Below are positions 35,790 to 47,626 of a DNA stretch of 52,293 nt, one piece after another. The stretch spans positions 104,721-157,013 of IMG/VR virus record IMGVR_UViG_2974499353_000001. The stretch is one strand, 5' to 3'. The notes below the pieces were generated by a model. That model was not told the origin of the DNA. It was given only the letters and a program-made list of their open reading frames with translations, and did not search any database. Every line of letters begins with the position of its first letter. The first letter of the stretch is position 1. This stretch comes from a virus. Lineage: Duplodnaviria; Heunggongvirae; Uroviricota; Caudoviricetes; Ackermannviridae. Both the position numbers and the translations under genes were made by a program.

Positions 35790-37064
35790 ATGAACGAACC
35801 AATTGATCCAAAATCTTTTCCCAGCCAACCGCTTTCCCCCTATATCCCGATGCATCATATTGGGAAAGGTCCATACAAAACTATCTTTAATGTTCTTTCC
35901 CTTAACAGAGACCATATCCATTGGGAAGACTATCTCTATAAGCACACCCCATGCGAACTCGTTGCCAACCCTGAAACTAATCAGCAGGTCTGGTTCAAAC
36001 GTGAAGATTACTTCGCGCCGCTGTCTTGTTATATGAATGGTAAGCAGGGGATCAATGGTAGTAAATTGCGTCAGGCCATCTGGCTGATGGTTGAGCATTT
36101 AAAAGCCGGAGGCTCCCCAGACCTTATCCATGGTACAGTTGTTGGTAGTCCGCAGTCCCCTATGGCGACGGCAGTCTCTCGGCATTTCGGCGGCAAGACA
36201 ACTACAGTCCTGGGCGCGACCAAACCAACCACCTGTATGAACCACGATATGGTTAAGATGAGTGCATGGTTCGGCAGCGAATTCAACTTCGTCGGTTCGG
36301 GTTACAACAGCACTATCCAGCCGCGCTGCAAGAAATTGATTGAGCAGCAGAATCCAAAAGCATATTATCTAGAGTATGGGATCACTCTGGATCATACGTT
36401 GCATTCTCCGGAGAGGATTGCAGGATTTCATATGCTGGGCGGCGAGCAGGTTGCTAACATTCCGGACCATATCACAGATCTGATCATTCCTGCTGGTTCA
36501 TGTAATTCTTGTACCAGCATTTTGACAGGTCTGGCAATGCACCCGAAACCGAATCTGAAAAATGTATATCTGATCGGGATTGGTCCCAACCGTCTGGACT
36601 TTATTGAAAGCCGTTTGCGTATTATTGGAAAACAAGCTAATCTTCCGCACATAACGGATTTCACTCGTTGCTATCACGACAACCCAGATTATGTGTATGG
36701 TAAGAAGGATCTTCAGCATGCCTCTAAGAGCGTTTCGCTGGCTGGCCTCCTGATGGGTATCCGCGAGAAGGGAGAGCCGGAGATAACGCTCCCACGCTTT
36801 GCAGTACACCATTGGGATTTGCATACAACGAATTGGGTTCGCTATAATGACCTGATGGATTATCAGTGGGGTGGTATTGAGCTGCATCCTCGCTATGAAG
36901 GCAAGGTCATGACCTGGATCCAGCAGCATAAGCCAGAACTGCTCAACGAAAACGCTCTGTTCTGGATTGTTGGTAGCAAGCCGTATATTGAGCCAATGAA
37001 GGCAGCATGCCCCGAATTGTCTATGCCGGAACAAGTTCCTGTGAACGAGTTTACCCCTGATTGA
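35790..37064 (+). CDS. PLP-dependent (fold II) enzyme; putative decarboxylase of thymidine hypermodification (ViI gp226-like)
   Basis: KREDYF..INGSKLRQ Schiff-base Lys motif, PAGSCNS loop, YEGK; pathway assignment from recalled ViI 5-NeOmdU work. Confidence 0.75.
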   Translation: MNEPIDPKSFPSQPLSPYIPMHHIGKGPYKTIFNVLSLNRDHIHWEDYLYKHTPCELVANPETNQQVWFKREDYFAPLSCYMNGKQGINGSKLRQAIWLMVEHLKAGGSPDLIHGTVVGSPQSPMATAVSRHFGGKTTTVLGATKPTTCMNHDMVKMSAWFGSEFNFVGSGYNSTIQPRCKKLIEQQNPKAYYLEYGITLDHTLHSPERIAGFHMLGGEQVANIPDHITDLIIPAGSCNSCTSILTGLAMHPKPNLKNVYLIGIGPNRLDFIESRLRIIGKQANLPHITDFTRCYHDNPDYVYGKKDLQHASKSVSLAGLLMGIREKGEPEITLPRFAVHHWDLHTTNWVRYNDLMDYQWGGIELHPRYEGKVMTWIQQHKPELLNENALFWIVGSKPYIEPMKAACPELSMPEQVPVNEFTPD

Positions 37065-37070
37065 TCCCTC

Positions 37071-37101
37071 CTAAATACCCCATACAGCAAGTGTGGGGTA
37101 T
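37071..37101 (+). promoter_or_regulatory. Late promoter with anti-SD hairpin
   Basis: CTAAATACCCCATAC...GTGTGGGGTAT-CT-ATG. Confidence 0.75.
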
Positions 37102-37103
37102 CT

Positions 37104-37553
37104 ATGAAAACCTTCCTAGAATTCTATCGTGAATCAACATTGCCCGATTTTACGGATATTGTTTTATATCATGGGTCGAATGTTGAATTCGACGTCTTTT
37201 ATTTTGAAAAATTTGGCCAGACTGACTCTGGTACGATGGGTGCTGGATTTTACCTGACAGGGGATCCAGAAAAAGCGCAGATCTACGCGGAAAACGCCGC
37301 TCGCTATCGTCAATCTGGTGAACCTGTTGTCATGGCATTTCGTGTTAAGGCCAAGAAGACTCTGGTGATAGATTCTAATAACGTTTCTGTTTGGGAAAAC
37401 AAAATGCGTGAGTTGGGGATAGAACCTGGTAAGATTCACGATAATGTGAAGGAACTTATCAATAAAGGATTCGATTCCATAGCCTCTATGAGCGCTAATA
37501 ACGTTGAAGAAATGGTCGTGTTTAAACCAGGGCTGGCGAAGAGAGAAGCCTAA
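37104..37553 (+). CDS. Putative ADP-ribosyltransferase with capsid-targeting-like N-terminus
   Basis: LYHGS, GAGFYLT..P..A..YA, GFDSI...EEMVVF (H-Y-E pattern); N-terminus MKTFLEFYRE. Confidence 0.7.
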   Translation: MKTFLEFYRESTLPDFTDIVLYHGSNVEFDVFYFEKFGQTDSGTMGAGFYLTGDPEKAQIYAENAARYRQSGEPVVMAFRVKAKKTLVIDSNNVSVWENKMRELGIEPGKIHDNVKELINKGFDSIASMSANNVEEMVVFKPGLAKREA

Positions 37554-37588
37554 ATATCCCATAAGGTTTATCCATAGAGGAAACGAAC

Positions 37589-45634: not shown

Positions 45635-45636
45635 AA

Positions 45637-45840
45637 ATGAAACAGATGTCTAAATATTTTGTGTTCGTCGGATTGGTGATGTGTATCACAGCTGTGCTTG
45701 TCGGTGTCATGAAATATTTGGGCATCGTTGAGTTGGATTCAACCGAAATATTGAACGTTTACGCGTTATATTATTTGGGGGGTGCTATCTTATTAACGCC
45801 TTTCGTCTATAACATAATTCAGAGTTTCAAAAGGAATTAA
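45637..45840 (+). CDS. Small two-TM membrane protein
   Basis: Two hydrophobic stretches; tight packing. Confidence 0.65.
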   Translation: MKQMSKYFVFVGLVMCITAVLVGVMKYLGIVELDSTEILNVYALYYLGGAILLTPFVYNIIQSFKRN

Positions 45841-45841
45841 A

Positions 45842-46228
45842 ATGAAAATCCTCATTCCACGCAACGTTGTCGCTGTTGCTATTGATTACCGTGGTGATGC
45901 GAAGATGATTAACGCTGTCCGTTATTATCCGGAACAGAATAAAATCGTCCCACAATTTCAACTGAATACCAATCCTTCTTCTAAGGATTTCGGTTCTTGG
46001 CGTCAGGTGGGTTTGGCTCGTACCCAAGTCAATGCCCAGCATTTTATTTCCGAAAAGACGAAAACCGCCAAGCAAATTTGGTTGGTGACGAATGATCGTC
46101 GTTTCCTGCCTATCTGGTCTCTGGGACAGCCCGTAGTAAGCCCCGAAGAAATTCAGCTGGCTCCCGAAGCTGAGCCTGAAGTTGTTTCTCCTGTAGAGGA
46201 AGTGAAAGATGAAAATCAAGCATGTTGA
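45842..46228 (+). CDS. Hypothetical protein (128 aa)
   Basis: SD AAGGA. Confidence 0.7.
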   Translation: MKILIPRNVVAVAIDYRGDAKMINAVRYYPEQNKIVPQFQLNTNPSSKDFGSWRQVGLARTQVNAQHFISEKTKTAKQIWLVTNDRRFLPIWSLGQPVVSPEEIQLAPEAEPEVVSPVEEVKDENQAC

Positions 46229-46394
46229 TTTTATCTTCATGATGCTGATGTTCGTTATCTTTACGGTTTCGCTGGTCGGCGTCATGGTCACAGAAGGGGT
46301 GCAACAGCGCCCATTCTTGGTGATCTGTCCAGTATCGATCGCCACTTTCTTCTATCTGGCGTTCCGTGTTGAACTCGGGAGTAAAATCGGATGA
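46209..46394 (+). CDS. Small two-TM membrane protein
   Basis: Hydrophobic; overlaps flanking genes as in an operon. Confidence 0.6.
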   Translation: MKIKHVDFIFMMLMFVIFTVSLVGVMVTEGVQQRPFLVICPVSIATFFYLAFRVELGSKIG

Positions 46395-47626
46395 TACACA
46401 TTTCTAAAATGCCGCAGGGGTATAAAGCCCCTGAAAAATGGAAATACCCGATTGATCTGGCAGTAGATTATCGTAAGCCAGAAAATCGCATGCACCTGCT
46501 CAAGGCATGGGTGGAGGCGCTATCCTACACTGAAGAGCATAACCAGCAAGTCCGTCTGATGGATTATGCCATCGAGATTACAGAAGGCATCACACAGCTC
46601 GAGAAGATCGAGCGCAAGATTTGGATGGCCTTTTTGTGGGGTTGTTGCTACAATGGGATTGGACCATGGACAATTTACAGTGAATTTCCTGTACCTCCAC
46701 AATCTCCGAAAGAGTTTCAGCGATTTTCTGATTGGTATAACCTGAACTTTGATCGTATGCGCTTCGATACAGATTGTCGTTATCGTAAGTCGAAGATGAT
46801 TCCGTGCGTTCAGTCCTACATTGATTGGCTGGCTGGGCGTACTCAGATGGAAGCATTCCGACCGATGTTGGAGACCAAGCTCCAAGGCGACCAGTTCGTT
46901 AAGTTGTGGGACACGGCGATGTCCTGGAAATACTTCGGTCGCCTGAGCGCCTGGAACTTCCTGGAAGCCCTGAACATGGTCTTCGGTAACATATGGGATA
47001 TAGACGTCCCTGGCTTCATGCTGCGTGACCGCGATGGCAGTGAATCCAATCGTAACGGCGCGGCGTTCTTATCCAACCGTGATGATTGGGTGACCAAGCA
47101 CGGGAAGAAAAAGATCAACGGTTGTCCTATTACAGACGAAGAATGTGATATACTCGAAACTGACCTTGAGAAAGCGTTTCAGGAATGCGTTGAAGAGTTC
47201 GGCCACATCACGTTTATCAATCGTCTGAACTTTGAGACCTCCGGTGCTTGTTGGCTGAAGAAATTCTTCCGTCTGAAGAATACCCGTTACATCGGGTGGG
47301 ACGCCGAGCGTACTTGGGATGAGATCGACTACATGGAACGCATCTGGCCTGAGTACTCCTGTGCGCCTCTCTGGGAAGCCCGTTCCCTCTGGCTACCAGA
47401 TACCCTGTTGTGCGAAAAAGCTCCTGCAGGGCACGTTCCTGGCGTCCAGAAGTGGAAGATGCCTGTGTTCTTTGAGACTGGTGTTCCTCTACATATATGG
47501 CACCTGCAGCAGGGTACGCGTTGGGAACCATCTGAGGTTTACACTAATCTGAAAATGCCCGTCCGGAAGATAGAGGACAATCCGAAGTCGACCAGTGTAA
47601 ACCTCATGTCTTTGTTGAAACGATGA
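46391..47626 (+). CDS. Amino acid:DNA transferase (aGPT-Pplase2 family, ViI gp247-like)
   Basis: W.AFLWG, FDTD.RY.K, FGRLSAWNFLE (HhH-glycosylase-like), ET..C..KK, Y.G. Confidence 0.8.
   Translation: MIHISKMPQGYKAPEKWKYPIDLAVDYRKPENRMHLLKAWVEALSYTEEHNQQVRLMDYAIEITEGITQLEKIERKIWMAFLWGCCYNGIGPWTIYSEFPVPPQSPKEFQRFSDWYNLNFDRMRFDTDCRYRKSKMIPCVQSYIDWLAGRTQMEAFRPMLETKLQGDQFVKLWDTAMSWKYFGRLSAWNFLEALNMVFGNIWDIDVPGFMLRDRDGSESNRNGAAFLSNRDDWVTKHGKKKINGCPITDEECDILETDLEKAFQECVEEFGHITFINRLNFETSGACWLKKFFRLKNTRYIGWDAERTWDEIDYMERIWPEYSCAPLWEARSLWLPDTLLCEKAPAGHVPGVQKWKMPVFFETGVPLHIWHLQQGTRWEPSEVYTNLKMPVRKIEDNPKSTSVNLMSLLKR

Follow-up and report, generated by a model that had tools for sequence, protein, structure and literature searches.

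A putative clamp-docking peptide common to the DNA polymerase and the hypermodification enzymes of an Ackermannviridae phage

The four genes and their peptides

The stretch of DNA analysed here, the window, comprises 52,293 nucleotides of the virus record IMGVR_UViG_2974499353_000001 (positions 104,721 to 157,013; Ackermannviridae), i.e., the final 52 kb of a phage genome of 157,013 bp. The DNA polymerase gene shares 93-97% identity with its counterparts in Salmonella phages of the genus Kuttervirus (Ackermannviridae, ViI type). In Mansal, a close relative, nearly all genes are annotated as 'hypothetical'. The subject of this report is a short peptide which recurs in four proteins encoded in the window: the DNA polymerase, a kinase for 5-hydroxymethyldeoxyuridine (5-hmdU) in DNA, an amino acid:DNA transferase (ADDT) and a pyridoxal-phosphate (PLP)-dependent enzyme. 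All four genes are on the plus strand; coordinates are those of the window unless the genome is mentioned. A sequence-only reading of the window had pointed out these peptides and suggested that they bind the sliding clamp. It had placed all four exactly where the translations put them, and the protein types it named (DNA polymerase, P-loop kinase, amino acid:DNA transferase, PLP enzyme) are borne out by Pfam and PHROGs matches, the match of the PLP enzyme to PALP being below the cut-off.

The polymerase (40237..43233, 998 aa) is a T4 gp43-type family B enzyme (PF03104, PF00136, phrog_262). As start we used the ATG annotated in relatives; the longest open reading frame begins at a TTG at 40078. 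The protein ends in ...HKRRVNLLSMMGKKG, followed by a stop codon. Its C-terminal tail, RVNLLSMMGKKG (43195..43230), consists of RVNLLSMM (43195-43218) and a final GKKG. In T4 the C-termini of gp43, gp33 and gp55 are interchangeable epitopes on divergent linkers which bind the sliding clamp gp45 (PMC2988020). The last 298 aa of the present polymerase align with T4 and RB69 gp43 (E 1e-46), and HMMER pairs HKRRVNLL with YEEKASLD of T4 gp43, residues 887-894 of 898. In position the tail thus corresponds to the end by which T4 gp43 binds its clamp. In enterobacterial relatives it is kept as RVNL[LM][SA]M[ML]. The polymerase gene is split or interrupted in several relatives (L003, L022, PP856728.1), with homing or HNH endonuclease genes annotated inside; in split genes the tail is retained on the C-terminal fragment.

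The kinase (44729..45634, 301 aa) is a 5-hmdU DNA kinase 2, HMUD2 (ViI gp243 family). It matches PF18747 with E 3e-150 and 499.8 bits over profile positions 1-298 of 298, i.e., across the whole family profile. The C-terminal end is ...TKSSVSLLGLLSKG, then stop. The tail, SSVSLLGLLSKG (45596..45631), contains SVSLLGLL (45599-45622) and is closed by SKG. According to the AlphaFold model the enzyme is globular and confidently predicted to about residue 270. A variable linker rich in Lys, Ala, Ser and Thr follows (about aa 271-289; 45539..45595) which is predicted to be unstructured: residues 271-293 have predicted local distance difference test (pLDDT) values of 53-71 and no secondary structure. 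For residues 294-299, within the tail, a short helix is predicted.

The third protein is the ADDT (46391..47626, 411 aa; aGPT-Pplase2, ViI gp247 family), which matches PF18724 with E 4e-58 and 197 bits, as expected of an amino acid:DNA transferase, and in addition phrog_3271. It ends in ...KSTSVNLMSLLKR, then stop; the tail TSVNLMSLLKR (47591..47623) comprises SVNLMSLL (47594-47617) followed by KR.

The PLP-dependent enzyme, a 424-aa open reading frame (35790..37064), belongs to the ViI gp226 family (phrog_3650, E 1e-240). The match to PALP reaches 30.8 bits, under the cut-off of 35 bits; the phrog_3650 match and the AlphaFold model are consistent with fold-type II, which is tryptophan synthase beta-like. 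By homology to ViI gp226 the enzyme is predicted to be an O-serinyl-thymidine decarboxylase (PMC8989533). Here the peptide is internal: SVSLAGLL occupies residues 314-321 (36729..36752), in the surroundings ...ASKSVSLAGLLMGIREKG... It is located in an insertion loop, aa 304-334 (36699..36791), which is predicted to be disordered. These 31 residues are the sole long internal stretch with a pLDDT <50 and are flanked by confidently modelled blocks. An internal position has a precedent, as the T4 gp55 epitope works even internally in a fusion protein (PMC2988020).

Specificity of the pattern

The sequence-only reading had given the consensus V-[SN]-L-x-x-[LM]-[LM]. In all six-frame open reading frames of at least 40 aa of the 157,013-bp genome this pattern occurs four times, i.e., in exactly the four named proteins. 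Three of the matches are found 2-4 residues before the end of the protein; the fourth is the internal one of the PLP enzyme. As a description of the motif the consensus proved too narrow, as relatives carry SxxDFF, K-K-L-W and S-L-W versions. The anatomy is better described as a six-residue hydrophobic core, [S/N]-[L/I/V]-[L/M]-x-[L/M]-[L/M], followed by basic residues and mounted on a flexible linker or loop. The motif copies use different codons, with 7-13 of 21 bases identical. Thus, the likeness exists at the protein level; a copied DNA segment is rejected, and selection acts on the peptide.

A broader pattern has an internal frequency of 2.8e-4 per position. Among about 257 rough gene calls it is expected about 0.6 times in the C-terminal 13 residues and was observed 7 times, an approximately tenfold enrichment; a still looser pattern gives 8 such matches. 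These calls are greedy longest open reading frames, and several small genes, including that of gp33, were lost to spurious frames on the opposite strand. Five of the C-terminal matches to the broader pattern look genuine: the three tails in the window and the ends of a PF18723 protein and of a 69-aa protein, both described below. A tail tube protein (SSLLGLL, 7 residues from the end) and the end of the DNA ligase (ENILVLLEAA) were set aside as false positives of loose patterns, as was a baseplate hub protein, the C-terminus of which belongs to the PF12322 domain.

Conservation on variable linkers, and relatives without a tail

When kinase homologs are compared, the segment after the globular domain varies freely. 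In 82 homologs 7-47 residues of unconstrained sequence follow the last conserved [DN]PL. The tail motif is nevertheless present in 81 of the 82, within the last 6-12 residues, down to 40% identity. The PLP loop behaves likewise: its length and sequence vary among orthologs and the motif is retained in the version of the respective lineage. Close enterobacterial relatives have SVSL[AL][GT][LF]L, the two Serratia-phage loci L019 and L024 have NTNVMHLL, and Erwinia phage Bue1 has AKNLLDIM; the motif reads TNKLW in phiA8-29, an Aeromonas phage, and ADIANFF in a phage related to Pseudomonas phage Cygsa01. A conserved motif on a variable linker or loop which is predicted to be flexible is how short linear docking motifs are built, as far as sequences and structural models can tell.

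The ADDT family is divided. A tail of some version is found in 45 of 60 homologs, again on linkers variable in length and sequence. Among these 60, homologs at ≤44% identity have no tail; their sequences stop at the conserved core, and the most distant of them belong to small phages. Two tail-less ADDT homologs are encoded on contigs of 25-35 kb, with ParB_N, Tet_JBP and terminase genes as neighbours. In these small marine or metagenomic phages (L088:7860-11077 and L089:7757-11179) the cassette consists of ParB_N, Tet_JBP, in part a P-loop kinase, and the tail-less ADDT, and adjoins terminase or portal genes, which is the arrangement of ParB-dependent T-dioxygenases (PMC13229309). The clamp profile found nothing in Mycobacterium phage Zemanar or in Glutamicibacter phage Montesquieu, and the homologs of these two phages carry no comparable tail, although the Montesquieu transferase does end in YLF.

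These relatives bear on the question whether the tail might act without any replication partner, either as a C-terminal degron by which a host protease would time enzyme levels or as a membrane-seeking amphipathic helix. Short, hydrophobic, basic, C-terminal peptides with a small predicted helix would suit either role. Left unexplained, however, would be the tail-less homologs in the small phages examined, two of which gave no match to the gp45-type clamp profile, the retention of the motif inside the PLP loop, and the fact, dealt with in the next section, that homologs of polymerase, gp33 and gp55 share the version of their lineage. We consider such a role very unlikely.

Co-variation of the tails within lineages

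Four whole relatives were compared, Erwinia phage Bue1, Aeromonas phage phiA8-29, Vibrio phage YC and an uncultured relative of Pseudomonas phage Cygsa01 (Cygsa01-like phage), together with metagenomic loci. In each lineage compared the enzyme tails follow the tails of their own polymerase, gp33 or gp55. In the present phage and other enterobacterial relatives the polymerase has VNLLSMM and the enzymes SLLGLL, NLMSLL and INLLEKM. The Cygsa01-like phage has an acidic version: SVMDFF on the polymerase, SLTDLF on gp33 and SIFDEFF on gp55, accompanied by NVFDIF on the kinase, SLNDFF on the ADDT, SVLDLF on the PF18723 protein, IANFF in the PLP loop and SLFDFF on the small Cys-rich protein. Vibrio phage YC combines AARRLF (polymerase) and SSRRLF (gp33) with TNRLF (kinase). 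In the metagenomic locus L082 a polymerase ending in SALW is accompanied by two kinases with NDLW and SSLW, an ADDT with NALW and a PF18723 protein with NSLW. The T4-like locus L083 has SLEDFF on the polymerase, LSLFDF on the ADDT and EFFDIF on a P-loop kinase. In phiA8-29 the tails are TARLF (gp33), GVLRFI (gp55) and VNVLKFF (polymerase), those of three enzymes KKLW, KRLW and KKLW, and the PLP loop has NKLW. Between lineages the tails change in net charge; their hydrophobic core is retained.

The co-variation was assessed by scoring the tails of the enzymes against those of polymerase and gp33 in every lineage and then permuting the lineage labels over seven lineages. The own-lineage similarity sum of 149.6 compares with a permutation mean of 98.9 (SD 14.7) and was reached in 3 of 5040 permutations, a result from seven lineages and hand-picked tails which is supportive and does not constitute a formal probability. 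Could all of this be a chance or compositional resemblance of unrelated Leu/Met-rich ends? The motif is short, and loose patterns yield false positives in structural proteins. Set against this are four strict matches genome-wide, three of them C-terminal, conservation down to 40% identity while the linkers diverge, and a co-variation which so few permutations attain. We thus regard chance as extremely unlikely.

A real common motif might still have a partner other than the sliding clamp, such as a scaffold or some different component of the replisome, e.g., the single-strand-binding protein, the helicase or its loader, or an organiser of a hypermodification complex. In phiA8-29 K-K-L-W is common to the enzymes and gp33 and absent from the polymerase, and the tails of the present phage are basic whereas the T4 epitopes are acidic; both would agree with such a partner. 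However, the same version is carried by homologs of exactly those proteins, gp43, gp33 and gp55, whose T4 tails bind gp45, and the latter two are transcription factors without a known link to single-strand-binding protein or helicase. Moreover, a charge which switches between lineages on a constant hydrophobic core fits docking in a hydrophobic pocket. We judge another partner to be unlikely.

The sliding clamp and further carriers

The genome encodes a predicted gp45-type sliding clamp of its own (227 aa; genome 89996-90679, outside the window; phrog_223, E 2e-65). It has full-length matches to the clamps of RB69 (1B77/1B8H) and T4 (1CZD) at E of about 1e-12, which identify it by sequence as gp45-type. 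The family is large, with 2346 representatives at E ≤0.001. A profile search of the genome gave no match to PF02916, the gp45 N-terminal domain, and PF09116 matched only under its cut-off.

One may ask whether the tails are addressed instead to the host beta sliding clamp (DnaN). The bacterial beta-clamp motif, QL[SD]LF or QLxLxL, begins with Gln, and its hydrophobic residues occupy positions 2, 4 and 5 (or 2, 4 and 6). Some relatives end in S-L-F or S-L-W, recalling QL[SD]LF, and phage Mu is reported to recruit the host beta clamp for late transcription (PMC12867686). The tails, however, lack the leading Gln and have their hydrophobic residues at positions 2, 3, 5 and 6. The phage has its own clamp and a polymerase tail which can be aligned with the T4 gp43 end. 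Moreover, tail versions differ between phages of closely related hosts. A host clamp as target is therefore very improbable.

Two further proteins encoded outside the window have tails of the kind discussed. The PF18723 (HMUDK_hel) protein of 408 aa (genome 85852-87078 = L035:5852-7078, minus strand), probably the ortholog of ViI gp160, ends in RSINLLEKMKK. In the orthologs of this protein the last residues read GTKKLW (phiA8-29), SVLDLF (Cygsa01-like phage), SLTSLFGGLKK (Bue1) and NSLW (L082). The second is a Cys-rich protein of 69 aa (phrog_4789; genome 28320-28529 = L032:8320-8529, minus strand), the gene of which adjoins that of the DNA ligase. It is conserved in 252 Ackermannviridae records and ends in KINLLNMMRK, a tail of the polymerase type; in the Cygsa01-like phage the end of the homolog is SLFDFFEV, i.e., the version of that lineage. 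The protein may be a small clamp-bound zinc protein.

In the window, a homolog of NT5C-like 5'-deoxynucleotidases (280 aa, PF06941, phrog_420; 43571-44413, plus strand) has no tail; its gene stands between those of polymerase and kinase and is syntenic in all relatives. A membrane protein of 371 aa (phrog_2087; 48324-49439, plus strand) was set aside among the false positives of loose patterns; in some Kutterviruses it ends in YKRLF. Here it ends in RRRYPFNF, after a C-terminal transmembrane segment, and is probably unrelated to the clamp tails. A protein of 149 aa (37104-37553, plus strand) matches ART-PolyVal (PF18760, ADP-ribosyltransferase in polyvalent proteins) and DUF3990.

Interpretation

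From the comparisons we regard the four peptides as representatives of a single short linear motif, the partner of which is probably the gp45-type sliding clamp of the phage itself. A clamp-binding peptide common to the polymerase and the hypermodification enzymes, as the sequence-only reading had proposed, thus finds support in the alignment with T4 gp43, the gp45-type clamp, the conserved tails behind variable linkers and the co-variation. We infer physical binding, the site on the clamp which is used and an effect on modification. That reading had also coupled hypermodification to the replication fork. Coupling to replication may exist, yet the fork is too specific a place, because clamps also stay on the DNA behind it and serve late transcription.

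Several observations weigh against docking on the clamp. First, the T4 epitopes are hydrophobic and acidic (PMC2988020); the present tails are flanked by Lys and Arg and contain neither Asp nor Glu. Acidic versions exist in the Cygsa01-like and L083 lineages. Second, matches had been anticipated in the homologs of gp33 and gp55, and this was only partly borne out. The gp33 homolog (PF16805; genome 42445-42774, minus strand, outside the window) does have a tail, KSKKLI. Together with that of a SLOG/YAcAr protein (KTKRLL; genome 96286-96753, minus strand, outside the window) it constitutes a second type, with K-[KR]-L-[LI] as the last residues, which differs from that of the polymerase. The homolog of the late sigma factor gp55 (268 aa, phrog_234; genome 67972-68778, minus strand, outside the window) has no C-terminal motif; a weak internal candidate, GILQCL, is located about 60 residues from the end and followed by an acidic extension. 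In relatives the gp55 homologs have SIFDEFF (Cygsa01-like phage), GVLRFIKSK (phiA8-29) and GLARLM (YC). Thus gp33 and/or gp55 match the version of the enzymes in the Cygsa01-like phage, YC and phiA8-29 and differ from it in the present phage. Third, the other kinase of the pathway, the HMUD1 5-hmdU DNA kinase (PF18748, ViI gp67-like; genome 36373-37047, minus strand, outside the window) has no C-terminal tail. Its N-terminus, MSYSLKGLLKR, resembles the motif, but Bue1, phiA8-29 and the Cygsa01-like phage have not retained it. Fourth, the enzymes of phiA8-29 match only gp33 and not their own polymerase (VNVLKFFK). Further, loose patterns also hit structural proteins such as baseplate hub and tail tube, i.e., the pattern alone is unspecific, and the permutation test is small. 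Lastly, the only published claim that a phage enzyme modifying DNA binds the clamp, an older in vitro report on T4 alpha-glucosyltransferase and gp45, could be confirmed neither in vitro nor in vivo in a 2025 preprint which used C-terminally His-tagged enzymes (bioRxiv 10.64898/2025.12.06.692756).

How might docking on the phage clamp operate? The polymerase would incorporate 5-hmdU, and clamps loaded during replication would remain on the new duplex. Via its tail the kinase would dock there and convert 5-hmdU to 5-phosphomethyldeoxyuridine (5-PmdU). The serine:DNA transferase would follow, likewise by its tail, and produce O-serinyl-thymidine (O-serinyl-T); the PLP decarboxylase would use its loop motif and form 5-(2-aminoethoxy)methyldeoxyuridine (5-NeOmdU). 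The PF18723 protein would probably dock in the same manner. Docking would hold the enzymes on fresh phage DNA and permit one-dimensional scanning, as the clamp does for polymerase and late-transcription factors.

Presently, we can only speculate about a wider scheme, in which clamp-docking tails would be a general rule for DNA-hypermodification enzymes in phages with gp45 clamps and the trimeric clamp, with its three sites, an assembly line holding kinase, transferase and decarboxylase; we are inclined to doubt it. Were it so, hypermodification would be linked to replication and processive; how far it goes would depend on clamp occupancy, for which the enzymes would compete with polymerase and late-transcription factors.

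For thymidine hypermodification the chemistry has been established. If the tails dock on the clamp, this would explain in a simple way how the enzymes reach phage DNA in time to protect it from host nucleases: they would ride a ring which replication has left on new DNA. It could then be tested whether modification is coupled to replication, whether this explains partial thymidine modification, and whether the enzymes compete with late transcription for the clamp. In that case the list of phage clamp clients would widen from replication and transcription proteins to DNA-modifying enzymes. The tail might also serve as a cheap bioinformatic marker for unknown DNA-acting enzymes of large phages. 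A practical point is that C-terminal tags on hypermodification enzymes may mask the interaction.

Comparison with known systems

The enzymes as such are known. The ViI pathway comprises the gp243 kinase, the gp247 serine:DNA transferase and the gp226 PLP decarboxylase in addition to gp67 and gp160 (PMC5889632, PMC8989533), and the activities of gp243, gp247 and gp226 have been reconstituted in vitro (PMC8989533). The same families are present here in a phage of the same genus (PF18747, PF18724 and phrog_3650 and, in other parts of the genome, PF18723 and PF18748); to these known enzymes the tail is an addition. The terms 'clamp', 'replisome', 'replication fork' and 'processiv' are absent from PMC5889632 and PMC8989533, and the enzyme tails are not discussed there; 'C-terminal' is used once in one of the two papers, for a deletion in the SP10 kinase. 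The tail and its implication thus appear to be unreported.

DNMT1, the post-replicative DNA methyltransferase of eukaryotes, is brought to new DNA by its PCNA-interacting PIP-box. Proteins, clamp family and motif are all unrelated to those considered here, and DNMT1 may serve as an analogy only. The ParB-dependent T-dioxygenases of phages (PMC13229309) resemble the present case in that a thymidine-hypermodification enzyme depends on a DNA-associated accessory protein. Yet ParB has no relation to gp45, and the coupling takes a different form. Closer in concept is T4 alpha-glucosyltransferase with gp45, i.e., a DNA-modifying phage enzyme claimed to ride the sliding clamp and to modify along with replication; no common tail motif was reported there, whereas here a conserved, co-varying peptide is at hand.

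The closest counterpart is provided by the epitopes of T4 and RB69 (PMC2988020; clamp-peptide crystal structure 1B8H). Both systems have a hydrophobic, exposed peptide, as a rule at the extreme C-terminus, behind a divergent flexible linker, with the spacing [S/T/N]-L-x-x-hydrophobic-hydrophobic. In both one peptide is common to several proteins of one phage, and a gp45-type clamp is present. They differ in that the tails of the present phage are basic, one copy is internal in a loop, and related lineages use K-K-L-W, S-L-W or R-R-L-F. The putative clients are DNA-hypermodification enzymes instead of replication and transcription proteins. Judged by these sequence comparisons, the hypermodification enzymes most likely represent a new class of clamp clients.

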